Below, piece after piece: positions 3,956 through 64,000 of a stretch of DNA of 64,000 nt. The stretch is from contig OZ024757.1 of NCBI GenBank assembly GCA_964016885.1, positions 16,616,001 to 16,680,000 of the forward strand, written 5' to 3'. The DNA is from Eledone cirrhosa. Its lineage: Eukaryota. The translations under genes were made by a program, and so were the position numbers. Each line of letters opens with the position of its first letter. Position 1 is the first letter of the stretch. The notes under the pieces were generated by a model. It was not told where the DNA came from. It saw nothing but the letters and a program-made list of their open reading frames with translations, and did no database searches.

Positions 3956-4338
<383 letters not shown>

Positions 4339-4606: not shown

Positions 4607-4847
<241 letters not shown>

Positions 4848-5313: not shown

Positions 5314-6390
5314 CTATATTTGTTTATATTTCGAAAATGAGGCTCTCATTATAAACACGAAGATGGCGACGAGACAAAACAATATGAAAACTGTAACTTC
5401 CTGTTTTAAAGCAATTAATGGAAGCTTCGAATTAATGAATCTTAAAATACTATCGGCTCCTCTCTCTATCTGTATCCGGTTGTTGTTCTCACAAGGTTTA
5501 GATTCCTGCAAAGGCAATGGATTGTTGTGACATGTCTGTGTCTGGTCGTTCTCACAACGGTTGGTTTTCGGAGAAGACAACGGATCTTTGTAACGCTGTT
5601 GTAAACGCATCAAGTACTCGCTGACAAAGTTTGGTGATTGACTAAAGACGGAATTCGTTGCATTTGCCTGTGACATAAAGGTTTCGTTATGGCTTTTGAA
5701 TAAATGTTTCTCGCGAGTATAAGGGCTGCCATGATCCTCTCCCATACCTATGTCTTTCCTGTTATTATTATCACATCTGGCTGCAGTCTGTCTTCCAGAT
5801 ATGTTCGCTTCGTGAAAATGGTAGTGCGAATTATTCACACACTGTTGTTGATGAGGATGATGATGGAGGGAGCGTTGGTAAAAATAGGGGTGGTTATGAT
5901 AATGACAAAGATGGGGAGGAAGAAGATAATGAGGATGATGATGAAATTGATGCTGGTGTTTTCCAAATACTTGACTGTGTGGGTAGTTAACACTTCTTTT
6001 ATCAGGCCTAACCTCCTCGGACATTTCTGAAGAAAAATTATGTCTATTTTCACAAAAACTTTTACTGTTATTATTATATTGCATCAAGCTTTCGCTGTTT
6101 CCCGGCATTCCAACCCATACCTTAGGTTTCAAATTCAAGCGATCGTTATCGGAATACCCAGCACTTAGACGTATTCGAACTGAATTTGCAATATCCACGT
6201 ACATATTTACTAACGGAGGTTCATCGTCCTTCTGAACACGCTTGAAATTATGTCTACGTTTCGAAAGATTCAAATCTGGCGTCAACGATGGTTGTGTATC
6301 ATCAGTTTGAATAACATCAACCACCATTGGCATATTCTCTTCCAAATTGTTGCTGCGACACTTCACTTTATCCGAAACATAAAAGTCCAT
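5314..6390 (-). CDS. Putative intronless orphan protein, 358 aa, His/Asn-rich with C-terminal hydrophobic segment
   Basis: ATG-initiated 1.07 kb ORF in unique, non-microsatellite sequence; C-terminal VTVFILFCLVAIFVFIM followed by RASFSKYKQI; no family recognised. Confidence 0.55.
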   Translation of the reverse strand: MDFYVSDKVKCRSNNLEENMPMVVDVIQTDDTQPSLTPDLNLSKRRHNFKRVQKDDEPPLVNMYVDIANSVRIRLSAGYSDNDRLNLKPKVWVGMPGNSESLMQYNNNSKSFCENRHNFSSEMSEEVRPDKRSVNYPHSQVFGKHQHQFHHHPHYLLPPHLCHYHNHPYFYQRSLHHHPHQQQCVNNSHYHFHEANISGRQTAARCDNNNRKDIGMGEDHGSPYTREKHLFKSHNETFMSQANATNSVFSQSPNFVSEYLMRLQQRYKDPLSSPKTNRCENDQTQTCHNNPLPLQESKPCENNNRIQIERGADSILRFINSKLPLIALKQEVTVFILFCLVAIFVFIMRASFSKYKQI

Positions 6391-7199
6391 TTTCTCCCTT
6401 GCTCTCTCTTTCTCTTTCTCTCTTCTCTGACAGATCTATCGGTTTTTTTGTCTTCGACGACGATGTCAGCCGCTTACTTAGTTCACACACTCCTTTTTCT
6501 TACTGTTGTTCTTTATATATATATATATATATATATATAAGACAAGGTGGATATATGTGTGTGTGTGTGTGTGAATGTCTTATGTATCCTGCACAACACA
6601 AGCAAGTCACCTAATATATCATTTTCTATAGTTTTGTTGAGGTGTCTTGTATTTTTTGCAATTTGACAACTCAGATAAATAAGACAATATTTTGACAATA
6701 TCAGCAAAATAGGAAAATATTTTGTCACGAAATTCTTTTCTCCGTTCTGTTTTGATTTTGATTTTATTTTTTAAAAATGACCACCAATACAGATTCTTTG
6801 AAACTAATCACACATATGCCGGCATACATAGACATATGTATATATGTAAATATATATATATGTATGTATATGTATATATATATATGTGTGTGTGCGACTG
6901 TGTGTGTGTGGGTGAGTATGTTTGGGTGTGGGTCCGCATATGTGTGTGTGTGTGTGTATCGGTGTGGGTGAGTTTGTATTTAAGTTAATACAAACACGTA
7001 GAGTTGTGCATTGAACGTATGTTTATAATGACAGTATGTATATATAAATATATGTATGTATGTTAGTATATTCGCAGTATGATACGATATATATATATAT
7101 ATGTATTTATGTAAGTCTATGTAGATTTATGCAATCACATATATATGTATGTATTACTATCCGTTAGTGTATATATACATGTGTACGTGTGTATATTAA

Positions 7200-8750: not shown

Positions 8751-9154
8751 TGAATGAAAAATAGAGCGAGAAACGGGACTGTCGCTGACAGTGGGAGTTG
8801 AGCTCTTCCGTTTCGGACACATTGCACCTGTCAAGGGTGTATTTTCAAACACATGTAGATCAAATAAATAATCTATTAACTATTGAACTTGGTGATCTAT
8901 TTTATTTGTTAATACATGATTATAAATCTGAGATGACCGGAAGTATACCAACTCGGTTTACCTCTGAAAAATACCTCTTGCTATTCTGGATAAACCATAT
9001 TCCAGCTTTAAATAAATATATGAACGCCTTTTTTACTGTTTAAGCAACTCATAGAATTGACTGTGACATGAATGGTCCTGTTACTTTTATCTAAAGACAT
9101 TTATTTCCAATTCGACCCCGCCCATCCTTACAATTTATCTTATTTCTCATTCTT

Positions 9155-9190
9155 TCTTCTGATGAAAGACTAGCGTCCGAAACGCTAAGA
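9155..9190 (+). ncRNA. Degenerate minimal hammerhead motif
   Basis: tctt-CTGATGA-aagactagcgtcc-GAAA-CG-CT-aaga; stem I tctt/aaga; U16.1 position mutated. Confidence 0.5.
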
Positions 9191-9367: not shown

Positions 9368-9369
<2 letters not shown>

Positions 9370-9567
9370 CGAAGGAAAAGTGGTAAGGAACCAGGTGGAC
9401 CATAACGCACCAAAGTACTCAATACTTAGGGTAGTAGAGTGGGTAATAGGAACCAGTAAGACCCCGACGGCTGAGCTCAAGCCGTTTCGACGGCTAATTC
9501 TGGACTGATTCAGTCCAGAATTAGCCGACGAAACGGCTTGAGCTCAGCCGTCGGGGTCTTACTTGTT

Positions 9568-9569
<2 letters not shown>
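9368..9569 (-). mobile_element. Family A fold-back mini-element
   Basis: Tail plus inverted arms centred on GGACTGATTCAGTCC; TA-flanked. Confidence 0.85.
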
Positions 9570-14594: not shown

Positions 14595-14777
14595 TGGATT
14601 GGCAGTATCGGTAGAGAGTCGGACGCCATGCTTTGAAGCATGGAATTACGTCCCTTTACAGTCTGAGTTCAAATCCCGCTGATGTTAACTTTGCCTTTCA
14701 TCCTTACGAGGTCGATAGAATAAAATACCAGTAATACACTGGGTAATTGCTGGCCTTGTGCCAAAAATAGAAACAAT

Positions 14778-14814: not shown

Positions 14815-14862
14815 GATTCTACGGGACTAGAACTGTTTCATTCTTTAGAAATCATCAGGAAT
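14815..14862 (-). mobile_element. Family B hammerhead-bearing fragment
   Basis: TTCTACGGGACTAGAACTGTTTCATTC..AGAAATCATCAGGAA. Confidence 0.65.
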
Positions 14863-14869
14863 CAGATTC

Positions 14870-14971
14870 ATTACGATCATCATCATCATCATCATCATAA
14901 CCATCACCATCAACGCCAACGTCATCATCATCAACACCATTACGATCATCATCATCATCAACACCATTACG

Positions 14972-21300: not shown

Positions 21301-21463
21301 GATATGTTGATTTAAAACTGAACTATTCATAAGTGTTTTTTAACCTTCATGTCATGTCTCCCTATTTTATCTGACGAAAACGCAAATGTCATCTCATGGT
21401 AATATTTGTTTTTGAAATGCGCATAATAAAATACATGGAACTCTTTTAACCATCTTTTGATCT

Positions 21464-21466
<3 letters not shown>
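21301..21466 (+). mobile_element. Family C mini-element with intact type I hammerhead (21363-21433)
   Basis: tattttat-CTGACGA-long stem II-GAAA-TGCGCA-TA-ataaaata; perfect 8-bp stem I; TA-flanked. Confidence 0.85.
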
Positions 21467-21521
<55 letters not shown>

Positions 21522-24117: not shown

Positions 24118-24318
24118 GATAGAGTAAGACACGCTTCGCATCGGCTCCGCTATTCCATCGGGATTTACCCTTACTATTGTAAGTACCGGATAAATTTTTT
24201 AGTGCAACACATTTGGAACACTAACCCCTGTTATTTAGGGAAACATTTTTGCATTTACCCCCTTTTTAGGGGGTAAAATAAATATCTATTTTTGCCGAAA
24301 AATTTCTTTCTTGGCAGC

Positions 24319-25707
24319 ATGGCGGAAAAGATGGCAGACATGTCTGCCATTAGCTCTGCCACGCCCCCCAAGTCTGAAGAACAAAAAATAATTACAACAA
24401 AATTAGACATTGAAACAAACAAACAAAATGAAAAAACAAATGTTAAGGAAAATGAGCAAACCGAAAACAAACAAACAGAAAATAATACAAATAACGACAG
24501 GGCAACTTTCGCCCAGAAAACAAAGCAATCCATTACATACACACCAATTGACCTAACTGCCGCCAGAGAAAAACTGGCCGAAGCAAAGAAACATATTGTT
24601 TTGGGGGAAAACGGAATGTTTTCCATTAACTCCCCCCCAGAATTCAAGAAAGCCAGAGCAGAAAACACAGTTATATACAGAACTATACTAAACCAGTCAA
24701 GAAAGCCAGCACAGCCCAGCCAAATGGAAATAGAGTTAGTCCTAAAAGACTACATGAAGAATATTCTCTTCATACGAAAGGACCGACTCTATGGCAGCAT
24801 TTCGGTCCTAACAAGAGACAAAGAAACGGCGGTTCAGCTTTCCCTAAGCCCACTCTCGTCGACAACATATAGCTTCTATCCCTCCTACATGGGTAGAAGA
24901 ACACAGAGGGTAAAAGTAAAAACAATGCTGCCCACAATGGACTTCTGGTGGGCTATTGCTGGCTTCATTGATATGGGCGAAGACACTATGCTGTCAATGG
25001 GGAAGGCAACTGGAGATGCGTTCCTGGGAATGGGCCTCGACATACTAGTCCAAATGAGGCCCGAAAGAATAGCACAAATCCCGGATCGCATCTGGCTGGA
25101 TGACCTTACCCCAATAGACATAATTGTAGAGGGGAGAAGACCAGCATGCTATTTATGCATGGAAAGGGGACACGTTAAGGCTAACTGCCCGAAACGTATC
25201 CCCCAAAAAGGACTATTGCCCACACCCACCACAAACAGTACACCAGCACCACCCACCTCCAAAAATACACTAATACCACACACAGCAAACAAAATACAGA
25301 CACCACCAACCACAAACACAACACAAACATCACCACCACCAGCACCAAACACAAGCACGACACAAAAATCACCACCACCAACCACAACACAAACATCACC
25401 ACCACCATTACCAACCACAAGCACGACACAAACATTACCACCACCACCACCACAAAACCCATTCCAAACAAATAATAAAAAAAACAGTAACAAATCTACC
25501 CCTCCCGCAAAAAAAAAACAACCACACAACACGTCCCTCCCACCTAGCGCTGAAGAGTTTCCCCCAACTTCTGAAGAAGAAGGAGGAGAAGCCTTCAGAC
25601 AAGTTAAAAGAAAAAAAAAGAAAACACACACCCAGCACACCACAAATAACCCACACACAAACACCAACTCCAATCAAAAACACCCCACCCTCAACAAACA
25701 AAAATAA
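24319..25707 (+). CDS. LINE ORF1 gag-like nucleic-acid-binding protein (N-terminal part)
   Basis: CCHC knuckle CYLCMERGHVKANC followed by Pro/Thr-rich tail; first in-frame ATG at 24319. Confidence 0.85.
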   Translation: MAEKMADMSAISSATPPKSEEQKIITTKLDIETNKQNEKTNVKENEQTENKQTENNTNNDRATFAQKTKQSITYTPIDLTAAREKLAEAKKHIVLGENGMFSINSPPEFKKARAENTVIYRTILNQSRKPAQPSQMEIELVLKDYMKNILFIRKDRLYGSISVLTRDKETAVQLSLSPLSSTTYSFYPSYMGRRTQRVKVKTMLPTMDFWWAIAGFIDMGEDTMLSMGKATGDAFLGMGLDILVQMRPERIAQIPDRIWLDDLTPIDIIVEGRRPACYLCMERGHVKANCPKRIPQKGLLPTPTTNSTPAPPTSKNTLIPHTANKIQTPPTTNTTQTSPPPAPNTSTTQKSPPPTTTQTSPPPLPTTSTTQTLPPPPPQNPFQTNNKKNSNKSTPPAKKKQPHNTSLPPSAEEFPPTSEEEGGEAFRQVKRKKKKTHTQHTTNNPHTNTNSNQKHPTLNKQK

Positions 25708-26155
25708 ATCTGCGCCTCCCCTCTCCGAAACATTGACAGCATCACAAAAAAAGACGTTGCAATACACATATATAAATAAAGAAAACAAAAAACTGGTTAA
25801 ATTAATAAACAATAACCCTATGGTGCAGACCGAAGGGCCAAACTTTATCTCAACAGAGAACTTCACCCATTTAAAAATGATAAAGGTCCCTCTGGACCTT
25901 TATCGTTCCTTAAAAGAACAATTTAGACGGGACGTGAGCCCCCCCTGTTTAAAACCGTTGAATCGCGTCCTCTTGAAAGATTTCCCCATAACCGCCCCTC
26001 TCCCTGACACAACTCCAAATACCCCAACCCCACCACACACGTGTACCCCCACACCACCACAAAACATCCCTCCACCCAACACACCTGATGCCATGGAAAT
26101 TACACAACCCGGAGAGGTAAGTGCTTTTCTTTCTTCACTTTCAACACCAAAATAG
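25620..26155 (+). CDS. Probable frameshifted C-terminal continuation of ORF1
   Basis: The +1 frame (listed ORF 25733-26155) is open back through the A-run at 25611-25619 and stops 5 nt before ORF2. Confidence 0.55.
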
Positions 26156-26160
26156 ATCAA

Positions 26161-29100
26161 TTGAGAGTTGGCTGTTTGAACGCGCGTGGCCTGAGCTCAG
26201 CTTGGAAGCAAGCAAAGCTTCTAAGTGACCTCAGGTCACAAAGTATAGATGTGATGGTTGTTTGCGAGAGTCGGATCAGCAGCGTGAGACAGCTGGCGCC
26301 CGCCTTCGATGACTTTGAGATGCACGCATCTCTCTGTCAACCCGGAGGCGGGGGGGGAGTTGCCGTACTGCTGGATAAACGTCTGACTCTCGACGTACAG
26401 ATTGTTCACTCGGACCCGGGGGGTCGATTACTGGTGCTGGACGTCGGAGGTGGTGAAGGCGGGGCTTTCAGACTGGTCGGTCTTTATGCTCCCTTCGGGG
26501 CGGAGAGAGCCGACTTCTTCCAACGTCTGGAGACTTTTCTAGGAACGTCGCGTTCCCTGCTTTTAGTGGGGGACTGGAATGGAATCCTAGATGCGCGTTG
26601 GGACTATGCAGGGGCATGTCCCGATAGAGGGGGGTGTAGCAGCCTCAAGGGGTTACTCGATCGATTCGACCTGGTCGATAGATTTCGACTAGATTGTCCA
26701 ACTGCGCCAACCTGGACCTGGGCAAACCGCAGTGGACAATCTAGATCGTACCTAGATAGGTTTTTGGTTAGGAGTAAGGATAGGGACGTATTTAGTTGTC
26801 CAGAACTGATCATGGTTGGCTATTCAGATCACAAATTAGTGACCTGCGTGGTCAACCTTGATAGAACGCATAGACAGGGTCCCGGTTACTGGAAGATGAA
26901 CTTGTCCTTACCGACAAAGAAAGATTACAGAAACCGGATTAGTAGCTTAGTTAAGATGCGGTTGACGGGAGCGATCGTCAACAGTAGGTGGTGGATATCT
27001 CTAAAGAGAGAGATTAGAGTAAGTTCGATAGGTTACAGTAAGGAACTAGCGGCGAATAGAAATAGGAGAGAAAGGGAGTTAACAGATAAACTAGAAGAGG
27101 CGATTAGGAGCGGAGACGTAGCCAGAGTGTTAGCGACGAGAACGGCATTGAGCCAGTTCTTTGACGCGAAGCACGAAGGCTGCGTTGTCCGAAGTAAAAT
27201 ACGTGCTTTAGGAAACGAGGGGACCAAAGCTGTTAGCTGGGCCCGCGTGACAGAAGCCAAGAGTGGGATTAAATCCACCATTCGGTCTTTGCGAGACCAG
27301 GATGGACGGGTGATCCTTGAACCTGAGCGAATGTGCGAGACCTTTCAAAGGCACTTTGCTCGACTGTTCGGAGGTGGCGGGGGGCCGGACGGGGATGTGG
27401 ACTTCGGTCCATACCTCGACGGTCTACCGCGTCTTTCGAGCGGCGAAGCGGAGTGCTGCGAAGGGCCAATCACAGCCACTGAAATCGGGGAAGCGCTCAG
27501 CCAATGCAGCAGACGCAAATCCCCGGGTCTCGATGGTCTACCATACGAACTTTATTTAGCTATGCCGGTCTTGTTCTCCGAACTCCTCGAGGCTGTCTAT
27601 TGCAACTGGCAACAGAACGGGAGAATTCCCTATTCTGTGACCAAGGGCGTGGTCACGCTAGTGAGGAAGGACGAGAGCAAGGGGGACGACTTAAGTAACT
27701 TTAGGCCCATAACTCTGCTGAATGCAGAGTTACAGATTTTGGCCAAGGTGTTGGCGAAGAGGTTGGCGCTTGTGGTGGGTGGTTTGGTGGGAGACGCGCA
27801 GACATGCGCTATCCCGTCCAGGTCCATTCACGACAACCTCCACCTCATGCGATACATCATAGAGAGGGTTGGCTACGAACCCGGCTTTGGTGGGGCCCTG
27901 ATCAACTTGGATCAATCTAAGGCGTTCGATAGGGTCGACCATGGTTACCTGGATGCGGTGCTAGCGGCGGCGGGCTTCGGACCCGTTTTCAGGGGCTGGA
28001 TTTCTGCCATGCACAGTGGCAACATCTACTCTAGGATTAAAGTAAACGGCTACCTCTCGGAGCCGTTTCAAATCACCCGATCCATCAGACAGGGGTGCTC
28101 CCTCTCCTCCCTTCTGTACGTATTGACTCTCGAGCCACTGCTGCGGAAGTTGGAGTTGCTGCGGGGCATACCCCTGGAACCGGGATTGCACAAAGCGGTC
28201 TCGGCCTATGCCGACGACGTAACAGTAATGGTGGCGGACGCCTCGGAAATCGGGGCGATCGCCACCCTACTGGAGGAATACGAAAGGCTGACGGGGGCTA
28301 AGCTGAACCAGGACAAGTCAGTCGGTTTGCAACTCGGAACGTGGAGGGGCAAACCGATGCCGTTAGACGGTGTCGTCGGGCGGTGGACGGAGGGCCCGGT
28401 GAAGCTGCTCGGGGTCTGGTTCGGACCGGACCTCCAGGTGGAGAAGAATTGGGGCGAGGTGACGAGCAGGGTGTTTGCGCTGACCCAGAAGTGGGCCAAG
28501 TGCAAACTATCACTGAAAGGTCGGGCGGAGGTGACGAACGCTTACATAGCGTCCGTCATCTACTACCGCCTGACCGTCGTGCCTTGCCCCAAGGAAAAGC
28601 TCACCATCATGGAACGCATGCTCTTCCAGTTCCTCTGGAAGAAGCGGCCTCCCATGGTGAGGAGATCCATCTGCTGCCAGCACCCTTCGAAAGGAGGGCT
28701 GGGTATGCCGTGGCTGTTGATGCGTAGGCACGCATTGAGGCTACGGCATCTACAGGTATTCCTCAACGGTCAGCCGGTGTGGGCCCCGTTTGTGAGGCGA
28801 GCCTTCCCACAGCTCGTCTCGCTCACCGAACTGCAATCCTGGGTGAAGCAAAGACCGAGAAAACTGGGCAACTGGCACACTGAGTGTGCCCAGGCGCTCA
28901 CGGCTATCTGGCAAGCGGACCCGACTGTCAGTGGAGAATCCACCTCGACATTCTATAGAGGGTTGGTGGTTAGCAGGGGCGACGACACCCTTGGAGAGTC
29001 GCTAGGCATGGAGGAGGACGAACTGGCCAGCCTGTTCGGTAGAACTTTCGGCCCGGGACCCATGGACAACTTCCAGAGGTCCCTAGCCTGGCAGTGTTAC

Positions 29101-29589
29101 CGGGGGGCTCTGCCCGTTCGAGAAAAGCTCTACAGACACGGGCGCCCGGGCAGGGATCCCGCGAAAAAGATCTGTCCCAGATGCGTGCGCGACGAGGAAA
29201 CCGTTGCGCATGCACTGGTACACTGCCCGGGCGTTGCCGATCTGTGGGGCTACGTCGAACGACTGCTGTCGCGTGTGGCGCCGATTCGATTAACCGCCGA
29301 GTCTGTGGTGAACATCAAGCCGCCTCCTCCCTTCAGAAATGAAGCAGAGGCGGTCTTTCTGTGCGTAATAGCCATGATGAAAGAGGTTGTGTGGTGGACG
29401 CGCCTGAAAGGTCTGAGGTCGGGTGACTTTCTCTCCGGCCATCACCTGGTTTACTTCTTCCGATACCACTTCGGAAGAAGAATCAGGATGGAGAGAGAAG
29501 TGCTTGGTCCCAGACAGTTTTATGAAAGGTGGGTGAAAGAAGCGAGAATGGCCCGTGTAAATGGGCCTTCTCTCTACATTGTTCTGTAG
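26161..29589 (+). CDS. LINE ORF2: APE endonuclease, reverse transcriptase, C-terminal zinc finger
   Basis: CLNARG, GDWN, SYLDRF, SDHK (APE); KSPGLDG, FRPITL, DQSKAFDRV, RQGCSLS, YADD (RT); CPRC...HALVHC; 1142 aa uninterrupted. Confidence 0.97.
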   Translation: MRVGCLNARGLSSAWKQAKLLSDLRSQSIDVMVVCESRISSVRQLAPAFDDFEMHASLCQPGGGGGVAVLLDKRLTLDVQIVHSDPGGRLLVLDVGGGEGGAFRLVGLYAPFGAERADFFQRLETFLGTSRSLLLVGDWNGILDARWDYAGACPDRGGCSSLKGLLDRFDLVDRFRLDCPTAPTWTWANRSGQSRSYLDRFLVRSKDRDVFSCPELIMVGYSDHKLVTCVVNLDRTHRQGPGYWKMNLSLPTKKDYRNRISSLVKMRLTGAIVNSRWWISLKREIRVSSIGYSKELAANRNRRERELTDKLEEAIRSGDVARVLATRTALSQFFDAKHEGCVVRSKIRALGNEGTKAVSWARVTEAKSGIKSTIRSLRDQDGRVILEPERMCETFQRHFARLFGGGGGPDGDVDFGPYLDGLPRLSSGEAECCEGPITATEIGEALSQCSRRKSPGLDGLPYELYLAMPVLFSELLEAVYCNWQQNGRIPYSVTKGVVTLVRKDESKGDDLSNFRPITLLNAELQILAKVLAKRLALVVGGLVGDAQTCAIPSRSIHDNLHLMRYIIERVGYEPGFGGALINLDQSKAFDRVDHGYLDAVLAAAGFGPVFRGWISAMHSGNIYSRIKVNGYLSEPFQITRSIRQGCSLSSLLYVLTLEPLLRKLELLRGIPLEPGLHKAVSAYADDVTVMVADASEIGAIATLLEEYERLTGAKLNQDKSVGLQLGTWRGKPMPLDGVVGRWTEGPVKLLGVWFGPDLQVEKNWGEVTSRVFALTQKWAKCKLSLKGRAEVTNAYIASVIYYRLTVVPCPKEKLTIMERMLFQFLWKKRPPMVRRSICCQHPSKGGLGMPWLLMRRHALRLRHLQVFLNGQPVWAPFVRRAFPQLVSLTELQSWVKQRPRKLGNWHTECAQALTAIWQADPTVSGESTSTFYRGLVVSRGDDTLGESLGMEEDELASLFGRTFGPGPMDNFQRSLAWQCYRGALPVREKLYRHGRPGRDPAKKICPRCVRDEETVAHALVHCPGVADLWGYVERLLSRVAPIRLTAESVVNIKPPPPFRNEAEAVFLCVIAMMKEVVWWTRLKGLRSGDFLSGHHLVYFFRYHFGRRIRMEREVLGPRQFYERWVKEARMARVNGPSLYIVL

Positions 29590-30427: not shown

Positions 30428-30913
<486 letters not shown>

Positions 30914-30965
30914 ATATTTATCTATCCAACTATCCTATATACAGATTTATCTATCTATCTATCTG

Positions 30966-37295: not shown

Positions 37296-37480
37296 GTGGA
37301 TTGGCAGCATCGGTAGAGAGTCGGATGCCATGCTTTCCAGCATAGTTACGTCCCTTTACGGTCTGAGTTCAAATCCCGCCGAGGTTCACTTTGCCTTTCA
37401 TCCTTATGGGGTCGATAAAATAAAGTACCAGTAATGTACTGGGTAATTGCTGGCCTTGAGCCAAAAGTAGAAACAATTAT
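37296..37480 (+). mobile_element. SINE family 1 copy with TSD
   Basis: ATTATAATGTTATTAC duplicated on both sides. Confidence 0.9.
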
Positions 37481-37946: not shown

Positions 37947-37948
<2 letters not shown>

Positions 37949-38102
37949 CGAAGGAAATGTGGTAAGGAACCAGGTGGACCATAACGCACCAAAGTACTCA
38001 ATACTTAGGTAGTAGAGTGGGTAATAGGAACCAGTAAGACCCCGACAGCTGAGCTCAAGCCGTTTCGACGGCTTGAGCTCAGCTGTCGGGGTCTTACTGG
38101 TT

Positions 38103-38104
<2 letters not shown>
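37947..38104 (-). mobile_element. Family A fold-back mini-element (short centre)
   Basis: Arms meet at CCGTTTCGACGG; TA-flanked. Confidence 0.85.
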
Positions 38105-54065: not shown

Positions 54066-54143
54066 AACGAAGGAAATGGGGTAAGGAACCAGATGGACCA
54101 TAACGCACCAAAGTACTCAATACTTAGGGTAGTAGAGTGGGTA
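54066..54143 (-). mobile_element. Family A tail-only remnant followed by GGGTACCTATCTTCC+(TA)n reiterations
   Basis: Homology to family A tail. Confidence 0.8.
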
Positions 54144-54151
54144 TCTATCTT

Positions 54152-54192
<41 letters not shown>

Positions 54193-57104: not shown

Positions 57105-57484
57105 TATGTCTGTCTCCGTGTGCATGTGTATGTATATATTTATATGCGTGTATGTATGTGTCTGCGCGCGTGTGTGTGTGCGCATATATATGTAGGTAGA
57201 CATTCATGTATGTGTTTATATTCGTATACACGTGTGTGTGTTTATGTCTGTATACACATGTGTGTGTATGTATCTGTGTGTGTATGTGTGCGTGTGTGTA
57301 TGTCTGTATACACGTGTGTGTGTGTGTGTGTTTGTGTGCAAGCCAGTGTTTCTAATTGTCCTTTATCTGAAGACACCATGTGCATTATAACAAGGACTGG
57401 TCTCTCACAGTTGGAACGAAGGACAATATAGAAAGAGAGGTGTTATAAAAAGTAAGTTGATACTCATTACTTATAACTACACCG

Positions 57485-57672
57485 GGCGGTGAATTGGCAG
57501 TATCGGTAGAGGGTCGGACGCCATGCTTTCCAGCATAGTTACGTCCCTTTACGATCTGAGTTCAAATCCCGCCGAGGTTGACTTTGCGTTTCATCCTTAC
57601 GGGGTCGATAAAATAAAGTACCAGTAATGCACTGGGTAATTTGCTGGCCTTGTGCCTAAAGTAGAAACAATT
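57485..57672 (+). mobile_element. SINE family 1 full-length copy with 19-bp TSD
   Basis: ATTACTTATAACTACACCG on both sides. Confidence 0.92.
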
Positions 57673-57726
57673 ACTTATAACTACACCGCCACATATTAAC
57701 AATTTCAGCTATTCCATTCTAGACTC

Positions 57727-57792
<66 letters not shown>

Positions 57793-57798
<6 letters not shown>

Positions 57799-57932
57799 AT
57801 ACTTTGGGAGGGTCATGTTGCCAATAAGAAACACACGCACTTATTGGAAACATGACCCTCCCAAAGTATAACAATATCGGTTTCAACACACGTTTTCAGA
57901 TAAAGAATCTTGCTAAACAAATTCAGAAACGA
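57793..57932 (+). mobile_element. Family D fold-back mini-element
   Basis: ~35 bp inverted arms plus ~55 bp tail; TA-flanked; homologous to 59191-59546 and 40303-40390. Confidence 0.8.
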
Positions 57933-58012
57933 AATATATATATGTATAAGTAATTACCAAATACGTTTTTATATTTTGTAGAGCCACTTATTGAGATATT
58001 TGCTTATGAATA

Positions 58013-59190: not shown

Positions 59191-59541
59191 CGTTTCTGAA
59201 TTTGTTTAGCAAGATTCTTTATCTGAAATCGTGTGTTGAAACCGATATTGTTATACTTTGGGGGGTCATGTTGCCAATAAGAAACACACGCACCAGTTGC
59301 TTTCACTTCAATTTATTATTATAATAAATTTATAATAAATTTATAAATTTATAAATTTCTGGTTGGTTGGTTCCACAACCAGATAGTTGTTTATATATTG
59401 TCATAGTTCTTTCGTCACACACTCTGTGACCTCTTCAGTGACTGGGGATTCCTTTCTTTGTTTCTGTGCCTCTCCTTTGTTCTGTCCTACGCCATTTTGG
59501 TGCGTGTGTTTCTTATTGGCAACATGACCCTCCCAAAGTAT

Positions 59542-59546
<5 letters not shown>
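59191..59546 (-). mobile_element. Family D fold-back element with ~200 bp centre
   Basis: Arms at 59245-59294 and 59498-59546; TA-flanked. Confidence 0.8.
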
Positions 59547-59894
<348 letters not shown>

Positions 59895-60360: not shown

Positions 60361-60438
<78 letters not shown>

Positions 60439-60443
<5 letters not shown>

Positions 60444-60769
60444 ATCAAAAGATGGTTAAAAGAGTTCCCTGTATTTTATTATGCGCATTTCAAAAACAAA
60501 TATCATCATGCAATAACATTTGTGTTTTCATCAGATAAAATAGGAAGACATGATATGTAGGTTAAAAAACACTTGTGAATAGTGCAGTTTTAAATCAACA
60601 TATGATATGTTGATTTAAAACTGCACTATTCACAAGTGTTTTTTAACCTTCATATCATGTATCCCTATTTTATCTGACGAAAACGCAAATGACATCTCAT
60701 GATGATATTTGTTTTTGAAATGCGCATAATAAAATACATGGAACTCTGTTAACCATCTTTTGATCTTAT
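60439..60769. mobile_element. Head-to-head family C palindrome with two intact hammerheads (60472-60542 minus; 60666-60736 plus)
   Basis: ~165 bp arms meeting at CAACATATGATATGTTG; CTGATGA and CTGACGA cores. Confidence 0.88.
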
Positions 60770-60877
60770 GTATTATGTATACTCCAATCCTACAAACTGT
60801 AGAGTGCTTTTTATCCGATATCTGCATTGCTTTATTGTACTACAATAAAACTCACCTCCTACATATATATATATATA

Positions 60878-61066
60878 GGAACAAGTAAGACCCCGACGGC
60901 TGAGCTCAAACCGTTTCGACGGCTAATTCAGTACAGAATTAGCCGTCGAAACGGTCTGAGCTCAGCCGTCGAGGTCTTACTTGTTCCTATTACCCACTCT
61001 ACTACCCTAAATATTGAGTACTTTGGTGCGTTATGGTCCACCTGGTTCCTTACCACATTTCCTTCG

Positions 61067-61068
<2 letters not shown>
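60878..61068 (+). mobile_element. Family A fold-back mini-element
   Basis: Centre AATTCAGTACAGAATT; TA-flanked. Confidence 0.85.
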
Positions 61069-61113
<45 letters not shown>

Positions 61114-61325: not shown

Positions 61326-61327
<2 letters not shown>

Positions 61328-61518
61328 CGAAGGAATTGTGGTAAGGAACCAGATGGACCATAACGCACCAAAGTACTCAATACTTAGGGTAGTAGAGTGG
61401 GTAATAGGAACAAGTATGACCCCGACGGCAGAGCTCAAGCCGTTTCGACAGTTATTTCTGGACGTCCAGAAATAGCCGTCGAAACGGCTTGAGCTCTGCC
61501 GTCGGGGTCATACTTGTT

Positions 61519-61520
<2 letters not shown>
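61326..61520 (-). mobile_element. Family A fold-back mini-element
   Basis: Centre CTGGACGTCCAG; TA-flanked. Confidence 0.85.
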
Positions 61521-62680: not shown

Positions 62681-64000
62681 CGGTTGACTGGAGCGATCGT
62701 CAACAGCAGGTGGTGGGTATCTCTAAAGAGAGAGATTAGAGTAGTCTCGATAGAATTTAGTAAGGTTCTAGCTGCGGATAGGAATAGGAAGGAAAGGGAG
62801 CTAATAGATAGAGTAGAAGAGGCAATTAGAAGCGGCGACGTGGCCAGAGTGCTAGCGTCGAGAACGGCTTTGAGCCAGTTTTTCGACGCGAAGCACGAAG
62901 GCTGCGTTGTCCGAAGTAAAATACGTGCTCTAGGGAACGAGGGGACCAAAGCTGTTAGCTGGGCCCGCGTGACAGAGGCCAACAGTGGAACTAAATCCAC
63001 CATCCGGTCTTTGCGAGACCTGGATGGACGGGCGATTCTTGAGCCTAAGCAGATGTGTGAGGCCTTTCAAAGGCACTTTGCCCGACTGTTCGGGAGGGGC
63101 GGGGAGCCGGTTGGGAACGTGGACTTCGGTCCATACCTCGACGGCCTGCCGCGCCTCTCGGACAGGGAGGCGAAGTCCTGCGAAGAGCCGATTTCGGCCG
63201 CTGAGATAGAGGACGTGCTGAGCCAATGCGGCAAACGCAAATCCCCGGGTCTCGATGGTCTTCCTTACGAATTATATCTAGCTATGCCGGACTTGTTCCC
63301 CGATCTCCTCGAGGCGGTCTACTGCAACTGGCAACAGAACGGGAGAATTCCCTGTACTGTGACCAAGGGCGTAGTCACGCTAGTGAGGAAGGACGAGAAC
63401 AAGGGGGACGAAATAAGTAACTTCAGGCCCATAACACTGCTAAATACAGAGTTACAGATTTTGGCCAAGGTGCTAGCAAAGAGGTTGGCGCTTGTCGTGG
63501 GCAACCTGGTGGGAGATGCGCAGACATGCGCTATCCCGTCCAGGTCCATCCATGACAACCTCCACCTCATGCGATACATCATAGAGAGGGTTGGGAACGA
63601 ACCCGGCTTTGGTGGGGCTCTGATCAACTTGGATCAATCTAAGGCGTTCGATAGGGTCGACCATGGTTACCTGGATGCGGTGCTAGCGGCGGCAGGCTTC
63701 GGACCCATTTTCAGGGGCTGGATCACTGCTATGCACAGCAGCCGCATCTGCTCTAGGGTCAAGGTGAACGGCTACCTCTCGGAGCCGTTCAAAATCGCGC
63801 GGTCCATCCGACAAGGGTGCCCTCTCTCCTCCCTTCTGTATGTGTTGACTCTCGAGCCACTACTGCGGAAGTTGGAGTTGTTGCAGGGCATCCCTTTGGA
63901 ACCGGGATTGCGGAAAGCGGTGTCGGCCTACGCCGATGACGTGACAGTAATGGTGTCGACGGCCTCCGAAATCGAGGCGGTCGGCACCTTACTGGAGGAG
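62681..64000 (+). mobile_element. Second, 5'-truncated Tx1 ORF2 copy (RT region) running off the window
   Basis: Starts RLTGAIVNSRWW (equivalent to ~26959); KSPGLDG, RQGCPLS, AYADD near 63925; preceded by TATC-like repeats. Confidence 0.93.

Follow-up and report, generated by a model that had tools for sequence, protein, structure and literature searches.

Near the right-hand end of the 64-kb window (the whole stretch of DNA analysed here, which is microsatellite-rich animal DNA), two copies of an AT-rich 165-nt unit, which we call family C, lie head to head. The left arm (60439..60603, − strand) is an inverted copy of the unit, the right arm (60605..60769, + strand) is a direct copy, and a single G/C at 60604 forms the centre of the junction. 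The two arms differ at 11 of 165 positions. The left arm is tail-less and directly abuts the (TA)n target, a 76-nt run (60365..60438). The right arm continues into a tail of about 90 nt (60770..60860, + strand, end approximate) containing two small hairpins, followed by a short (TA)n (60863..60877) and then by a palindrome of another family, B. Two further copies stand as monomers in (TA)n, at 21301..21469 and 39873..40034 (both + strand), and these, like the left arm, have no tail. Identity to the right arm is 95% for the first and 90% for the second. The four copies are 89–95% alike, every one of them in (TA)n, and TA runs of 12–96 nt lie on both sides at all three loci, where they would mask any target-site duplication. 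An earlier note on this DNA had observed that the monomers start with the sequence found at the palindrome centre; this holds, with ATATGTTGATTT at 21302 and 39873, and all four copies begin within 1 nt of one another. At 21301 an extra G precedes ATATG. Just inside this recurrent 5' boundary a hairpin is predicted (60605..60660, + strand; −8.9 kcal/mol, z −2.2). BLAST with the four copies found no further full copy in the 64-kb window.

Each arm contains a hammerhead ribozyme motif, on the right arm at 60666..60736 (+ strand), where it is supported by descriptor, alignment and fold, and on the left arm at 60542–60472 (− strand, core CUGAUGA). In the right arm, stem I (60666–73/60729–36) is followed by C3–A9 (60674–80), stem II (60681–96/60701–16, with A-U at 10.1:11.1), GAAA (60717–20) and a palindromic stem III (60720–27), with the predicted cut after A60728. 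The earlier description of a type I hammerhead with an 8-bp stem I is confirmed by 8/8 pairs in 4/4 copies. The long stem II, said to vary while retaining its pairing, does so, with 15 pairs plus one C-U mismatch and 58 of 60 cells paired, and the palindromic stem III with its AUA site is likewise present, AUGCGCAU occurring in all four copies. Stem III itself consists of 2 bp closing GCGC, invariant across the four copies, and the self-duplex energy of AUGCGCAU is −10.5 kcal/mol. That such a stem is of the kind seen in Penelope-like element (PLE) and retrozyme hammerheads that cleave as dimers, as had also been claimed, agrees with the available portions of PMC4209133. In the alignment of four copies, 98 of 100 cells of the whole hammerhead are paired, as against 36–63% in slid registers. 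Changes in stem II affect six pairs on one side only and none on both sides, so that four copies yield no compensatory evidence (covariation 0.113, compared with 0.120 after shuffling). The hammerhead fold lies 4–5 kcal/mol above the minimum free energy structure, with stem I and most of stem II common to both.

The core CUGANGA/GAAA/UA is intact in three of the four copies, among them the 21301 monomer, which shares the right arm's stem II variant. The copy at 39871 (39873..40034) reads CUAAUGA, that is, G5A, the usual inactivating change of the hammerhead core, and it is therefore predicted to be dead. The 10.1:11.1 pair is A-U in three copies and G-U in one, rather than G10.1:C11.1; within the family, A>G at 60681 is present in 26–32% and T>C at 60716 in 1–14%. 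The reading frame from the core ATG/ACG meets two TGA stops in 31 codons. A type I descriptor found five sites in the window (three family-C copies, the end of a PLE with C3 at 41735, and one copy of a family D) and none in 20 block shuffles. The Rfam search suggested in the earlier note had the opposite outcome: no hammerhead model reached its gathering score anywhere in the window, and none appeared at E≤10 on 60380–61100 or 21340–21470. At this threshold the palindrome region gave sub-threshold hairpin-type matches only, mostly to miRNA models, while the monomer and the PLE end gave noise. Since the hammerhead that ends the window's own PLE is missed as well, Rfam is insensitive to motifs of this kind here.

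That PLE is a 5'-truncated, Neptune-type element in (TA)n (41581..43062, − strand), which serves here as an object of comparison, without being the demonstrated parent of family C. Its open frame of 313 codons (42121–43062, − strand) encodes the C-terminus of a reverse transcriptase (RT), a CxxxxCxxC linker, which the sections of PMC8557442 consulted describe as typical of Neptune/Nematis PLEs, and a GIY-YIG endonuclease. At its end stands a type I hammerhead, whose stem III is the palindrome AGTACT. Relatives of its protein comprise 124 matches with RT/GIY-YIG, the best at 65% identity and the named ones mostly molluscan. The names of bacterial symbionts (Solemya velum gill symbiont, Candidatus Thiodiazotropha) are attached to some PLE proteins, host contamination of those assemblies being the probable cause. 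An older PLE-like endonuclease fragment without a Pfam match lies at 41004–41522 (− strand).

The palindrome is no peculiarity of family C, as families B (seven loci), D (one) and E (one) show the same structure in the window. Family B forms head-to-head palindromes in (TA)n at 1706–1909, 4004–4192, 9369–9569, 37948–38104, 59589–59790, 60878–61067 and 61327–61520, with variable centres and a 79–80-nt tail on one arm, and a tail-only copy lies at 54067–54153. It retains only the 3' half of a hammerhead, without CUGANGA, and its stem III loop is self-complementary, reading TGAGCTCA in most copies. Family D (43554–43732, 4704–4845, 14817–14875, 30805–30914) has a whole type I hammerhead with a short stem II; one copy is a head-to-head palindrome with a tail, and that at 4704 has just an inverted stub of about 11 nt at its 5' junction. 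Family E, a short repeat (57795–57933, 59191–59318, 59359–59545, 40313–40390), forms a head-to-head palindrome at one place, extended on one side. Further short AT-rich palindromes adjoin (TA)n at 40205–40277 and 43899–44005, with no hammerhead core seen, and a single core-like motif, CTGATGA...CCGAAAC, at 9140–9190 (+ strand) is missed by the stricter descriptor. Other features of the window are an apparently intact two-ORF LINE (24277–29589, + strand; a 476-aa ORF1 and an 1166-aa APE-RT-zf-RVT ORF2), which has a second partial copy, 86% identical, at 62681–64000 and many 3' fragments; a dispersed repeat of about 190 bp, which may resemble an octopus SINE, in at least nine copies (296–505, 817–1427 with three in tandem, 14596–14777, 37296–37480, 45486–45668, 52618–52816, 57468–57678); and a 373-codon open frame (5314–6435, − strand), without a Pfam match, which is possibly a host exon.

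A multiple alignment of the tails of B, C, D and E with the PLE end reached 40% identity and was uninformative, and the tail folds were no better than those of shuffled sequence. In the tails of C (60770–60860), B (60988–61067) and D (43654–43732), ACTC stands 9–16 nt into the tail and is followed 11–17 nt on by GAGT; this is possibly a shared recognition stem, its folds not being significant. A 43-codon open frame through the family C tail had no match in a word index; a phmmer match to the tail peptide was repetitive, at 26% identity, and was set aside as no credible homologue. A homologue search with the family-B tail peptide came back empty. An exact 29-mer of family C had no match in metagenome contigs, nor did a 20-mer in viral contigs. 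A gapped hammerhead pattern did match once in metagenomes and once in prokaryote genomes; in both cases only the 14–16 pattern letters agreed, and both were rejected as chance. We found no description of family C in the literature, and it may be listed in Repbase, Dfam or the supplements of papers.

Family C extends well beyond the window. Reads and contigs from 4 of 14 sequencing runs (RAD reads and contigs) were compared with 60601–60780 only, leaving out runs X2, X3, X4, X7–X11, X13 and X14, of which X4 and X7–X11 are small shares. In organism A it is abundant (3333 reads and 3127 contigs, depths that are not copy numbers), and organisms B and C have it as well (28 and 53 contigs, respectively). 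These data also show that the ends of the 165-bp unit are not the ends of the family, as both are exceeded in other copies. On the 3' side, 1409 RAD reads pass 60769 with a consensus that equals window positions 60772–60801 at 29 of 30 letters (by eye), two organism B contigs continue past 60769 with similar letters, and an X1 contig (record 8) reaches 60780 with 14 other letters, depth in X1 and X6 being kept to 60780. Some 1140 of these 1409 reads have a common end, at 60719, and could thus come from one or a few loci; as their sequence departs from that of the window copy at several sites, they probably represent another copy. At minimum the first 30 nt of the tail is, by sequence, common to other copies of family C. 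On the 5' side, loose ends before 60605 are present in 440 reads and 33 contigs. Their consensus is not (TA)n; it is blended (agreement about 0.6) and ends in TTTTC in both organism A runs. Copies in long (TA)n are probably under-sampled by RAD and contig data, so no proportion of extended copies is given.

Among the joints listed, a single one connects opposite strands, from 60609 to 60729, with a 3-letter microhomology and support from three reads with two starts. It represents a second inverted joint, with a differently truncated second arm, and 60729 is the first base after the predicted cut site; as it is one locus, it is only suggestive. In a diverged subfamily with loose ends before 60708–60709 (140 reads, five contigs), a different but still long 5' half of stem II joins the conserved 3' half, which suggests, by eye, that the long stem II is kept across subfamilies.

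The same variants were used to ask how the ribozyme is conserved. Among 40 variant rows listed of 56, 36 unit positions vary, G60722T still being counted among them. That substitution (1180 reads) was treated as a RAD cut-site artefact, 1140 molecules ending at 60719, and it is also carried by one low-depth X1 contig. None of the 36 listed variable positions falls in the 12 invariant core bases (P 0.046), and two fall in the 34 positions of core, stem I and stem III (P 0.007). When restricted to the 22 positions polymorphic in X1, the corresponding values are P 0.17 for the core and P 0.033 for the 34-position set. Within the core CUGANGA/GAAA/UH only N7 varies among the variant rows listed. 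In stem II, eight of nine listed variants retain pairing, and seven of eight transitions (P 0.076); this is weak evidence, because 17 of 30 possible transitions keep pairing anyway. Taken at modest confidence, the pattern indicates that the ribozyme is probably under selection in the source elements.

We consider it likely that the 165-bp unit is the hammerhead-bearing 3' end, or pseudo-LTR (pLTR) stump, of an abundant PLE family, and that the palindrome is one insertion, which placed a pair of such ends head to head within (TA)n. Several features of a PLE stump are found at this locus: a hammerhead with a palindromic helix III, a head-to-head 5'-truncated inverted copy, a one-sided tail and a (TA)n target. 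Because families B, D and E show the same arrangement, the palindrome is a routine product of several families here. Several observations weigh on the other side. The starts of the four copies lie within 1 nt, which random 5' truncation does not predict; the tail of about 90 nt exceeds the 30–40 nt reported in the portions of PMC8557442 and PMC3846280 at hand; and the G10.1:C11.1 pair, highly conserved in PLE hammerheads according to the available text of PMC4209133, is here A-U or G-U. The parent ORF of family C was not recovered, as a 5' run-on was seen but its sequence was not obtained, and the link to PLEs therefore rests on anatomy and analogy. Family C is real and, most likely, a PLE end-piece of the ordinary sort whose stem II and tail are unusually long.

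A sequence of events can be proposed from PLE biochemistry. A PLE protein, probably of the Neptune type with GIY-YIG and RT domains and acting in trans, would cut both strands of (TA)n, and each 3'-OH would prime reverse transcription at one of two internal start sites, giving one arm with the tail (from the tail start) and one without it (from the inner start). Both cDNAs would stop at a preferred CATATG, just past the predicted hairpin and resembling the TA target, and their 3' ends would then be joined to give head-to-head arms. The two arms at 60439–60769 would probably have been copied from two different RNAs. In the source elements the ribozyme would be kept by selection and would need a dimer formed through the AUGCGCAU palindrome, while in the head-to-head product it would be a passenger that a 165-bp hairpin is predicted to lock away.

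Alternatively, the palindrome itself could be a selected locus, either a bidirectional ribozyme or a dedicated source of hairpin siRNA. Its read-through RNA, from either strand, is predicted to form a 165-bp hairpin, 93% paired, at −221 and −227 kcal/mol; small RNAs from PLEs are on record in other animals (PMC3846280, in the part available), and a source of hairpin siRNA or double-stranded RNA is physically possible on this model. The same hairpin is predicted to exclude the ribozyme fold. The pair probability of stem I falls from 0.24 in the arm alone to 1e-52 in the read-through RNA, and that of stem II from 0.88 to 2e-18. The proposal that transcription in either direction gives a self-cleaving RNA is not supported by this prediction, in which the antisense arm, made first, pairs with the ribozyme arm; a 'bidirectional ribozyme' is thus unsupported, and cleavage of palindrome RNA would need initiation near the centre. 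At least nine similar palindromes of three other families lie in the same 64 kb, and among the three rare substitutions of the right arm is one that disrupts a stem II pair. We regard selection on this palindrome as very improbable. Scarcely credible is a DNA transposon of the MITE kind, bounded by long terminal inverted repeats and inserting at TA: the element is palindromic, short and set in TA, but single arms stand alone at two of three loci, the tail is one-sided, the reads contain a joint with a differently truncated second arm, and the hammerhead is conserved. The existence of monomers already largely excludes it.

The coincident starts of 4/4 copies would be accounted for by a SINE-like, self-transcribed mini-element derived from a PLE end. 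Transcription would start at A60605 inside the pLTR, and a PLE acting in trans would make full-length copies of the short capped RNAs with their hammerhead and tail. PLE derivatives of a non-autonomous kind are described in the parts seen of PMC8557442 (Chlamys MRC1) and bioRxiv 10.64898/2026.07.22.740005. The G before ATATG at 21301 matches neither the (TA)n target nor the upstream C of the other copies and could be cap-templated. A cap-templated G is a feature of full-length LINE insertions. Many copies, however, run on upstream of 60605. Only one copy shows the extra G unambiguously, and there it could be what is left of a left arm that was lost. In families B and D, too, 5' ends recur at points that differ by family and lie within or next to the ribozyme, a pattern suggestive of hot spots at which RT stops. 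Such a mini-element is, in our judgement, unlikely. A lower likelihood still attaches to the view of the earlier note, in which the copies are dispersed monomers of a non-LTR retrozyme that is arranged head to tail elsewhere and spreads via circular RNA. The size of the unit, 165 nt (about 255 nt with the tail), and its low GC fall within the 150–450 bp and <50% GC of retrozymes (PMC7229834, as far as available), and dispersed monomers accompany retrozyme families in Xenopus in the accessible part of bioRxiv 10.64898/2026.07.22.740005. A unit longer than 180 nt, as this one would be with its tail, would escape joint detection over 60601–60780, and the blended upstream loose ends would leave room for one. 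Against this reading, none of three loci is tandem and no go-back joint occurs among the joints listed within 60601–60780; the ends are fixed relative to the tail and not permuted; head-to-head arms with a one-sided tail are the PLE pattern; and the helices, at 8 bp and 15 pairs, depart from the sizes of about 6 bp for helix I and about 4 bp for helix II in the canonical form, which also has loop 1–loop 2 contacts. The claim of a retrozyme-like unit with defined ends is therefore not supported: there is no tandem (0/3 loci), the ends lie off the cleavage site, and both are exceeded elsewhere, by 440 reads at the 5' side and 1409 at the 3' side.

Under the PLE reading, the number of templates for the palindrome can be approached through its 11 arm differences. 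Three are a rare base in the right arm, six have two bases that are both family variants (one of these bases at only 4% in X1), and two are unlisted. The left arm's stem II haplotype recurs in the loose ends of all four runs (by eye), and that of the right arm is shared with the 21301 monomer. Judged by these haplotypes, each arm belongs to a subfamily of its own, and the locus was probably copied from two templates. What speaks against two templates is that the arms show no difference over their inner 45 bp (P 0.026). In family B, arm divergence is 0.057 within loci and 0.096 between them without the divergent locus 4004, and 0.070 and 0.164 with it. Fold-back copying, or homogenisation at a later time, would account for the identical inner 45 bp and the closer family-B arms better than two templates would, and a mixed model may also hold.

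A further reading would join several of these observations, and we offer it tentatively, as having a low probability. The palindromic helix III would be a dimerisation signal, acting like the kissing loop of retroviruses and bringing two separate PLE RNAs into one particle. Each strand of the cut (TA)n would then receive a copy of one of these RNAs, made by a protein dimer, and head-to-head insertions with arms of different subfamilies would be explained in this way. Self-cleaved RNAs would sometimes be copied to the cut end, as at the 60609/60729 joint, and family C might in addition be a mini-element that is capped and starts its own transcription. If this is true, the 60609/60729 joint is a genomic footprint of PLE ribozyme cleavage in vivo.

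On the preferred reading of a PLE end-piece, palindromes of this kind should be filed as PLE end-pieces and not as MITEs, microRNA precursors or bidirectional ribozymes. How PLEs form head-to-head inversions, and what the hammerhead does in vivo, are open questions in the portions of PMC8557442, PMC11167929 and PMC3846280 at hand. A genome dense in two-armed stumps of distinguishable subfamilies makes arm-to-arm pairing, and with it the choice between one and two templates, testable by counting; 5' ends at the cleavage site are countable in the same genome and bear on the role of the hammerhead in vivo.

The closest known counterpart is the insertion unit of endonuclease-bearing PLEs, as far as the accessible text of the sources describes it. 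PLE insertions consist of an inverted 5'-truncated copy with a tail at one end and a bias for (TA)n (PMC8557442), and head-to-head inverted pLTRs of 181–218 bp, with an optional tail, are found beside solo pLTRs, self-priming having been proposed (PMC3846280). Family C resembles this unit in its head-to-head arms of pLTR size, its one-arm tail, its solo copies, its (TA)n surroundings and the hammerhead in the repeat. It differs in that both arms are stumps, the 5' boundary recurs within 1 nt and the tail is about 90 nt long (PMC3846280, PMC8557442); compared with the self-priming model of PMC3846280, its arms come from two subfamilies. A parent ORF was also not found. As a ribozyme it is close to the PLE hammerheads and min-HHRs of PMC4209133, in the parts available, being of type I with palindromic 15.2–16.2 and loop 3, an enlarged helix II and an expected dimer; PLE hammerheads with a palindromic helix III are inactive as monomers in that account. 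The min-HHRs of Schistosoma there have a helix II of 7–8 bp and a helix I of 4–5 bp, compared with 15 pairs and 8 bp in family C, whose 10.1:11.1 pair is mostly A-U or G-U, not G-C, and which has no clear extra base at 9.1.

Poseidon of Anolis (PAc) offers a biochemical parallel. In the sections of PMC11167929 available, cutting takes place on both strands of the target, each of which is then extended, the tail arises from two internal RT starts, a protein dimer is predicted, and the hammerhead is dispensable for insertion in vitro. Family C is like PAc in its AT-rich target, where cutting and extension of both strands and two RT starts would give the tail, and in a hammerhead upstream of the RT start. 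It belongs to a different clade, and the PAc ORF starts inside the hammerhead, whereas the corresponding core frame of family C has the two TGA stops. Animal retrozymes, finally, are defined as tandem repeats in the parts seen of PMC7229834 and bioRxiv 10.64898/2026.07.22.740005. Family C shares with the metazoan non-LTR retrozymes described there its short, AT-rich, non-coding sequence, its type I hammerhead, a likely origin from pLTRs and movement by PLEs; unlike them, it has no head-to-tail tandem seen and its helix sizes are not canonical. With no head-to-tail tandem it falls outside the retrozyme definition, where testable. As the accessible text of bioRxiv 10.64898/2026.07.22.740005 derives retrozymes from pLTRs, family C may resemble the raw material from which retrozymes are made.
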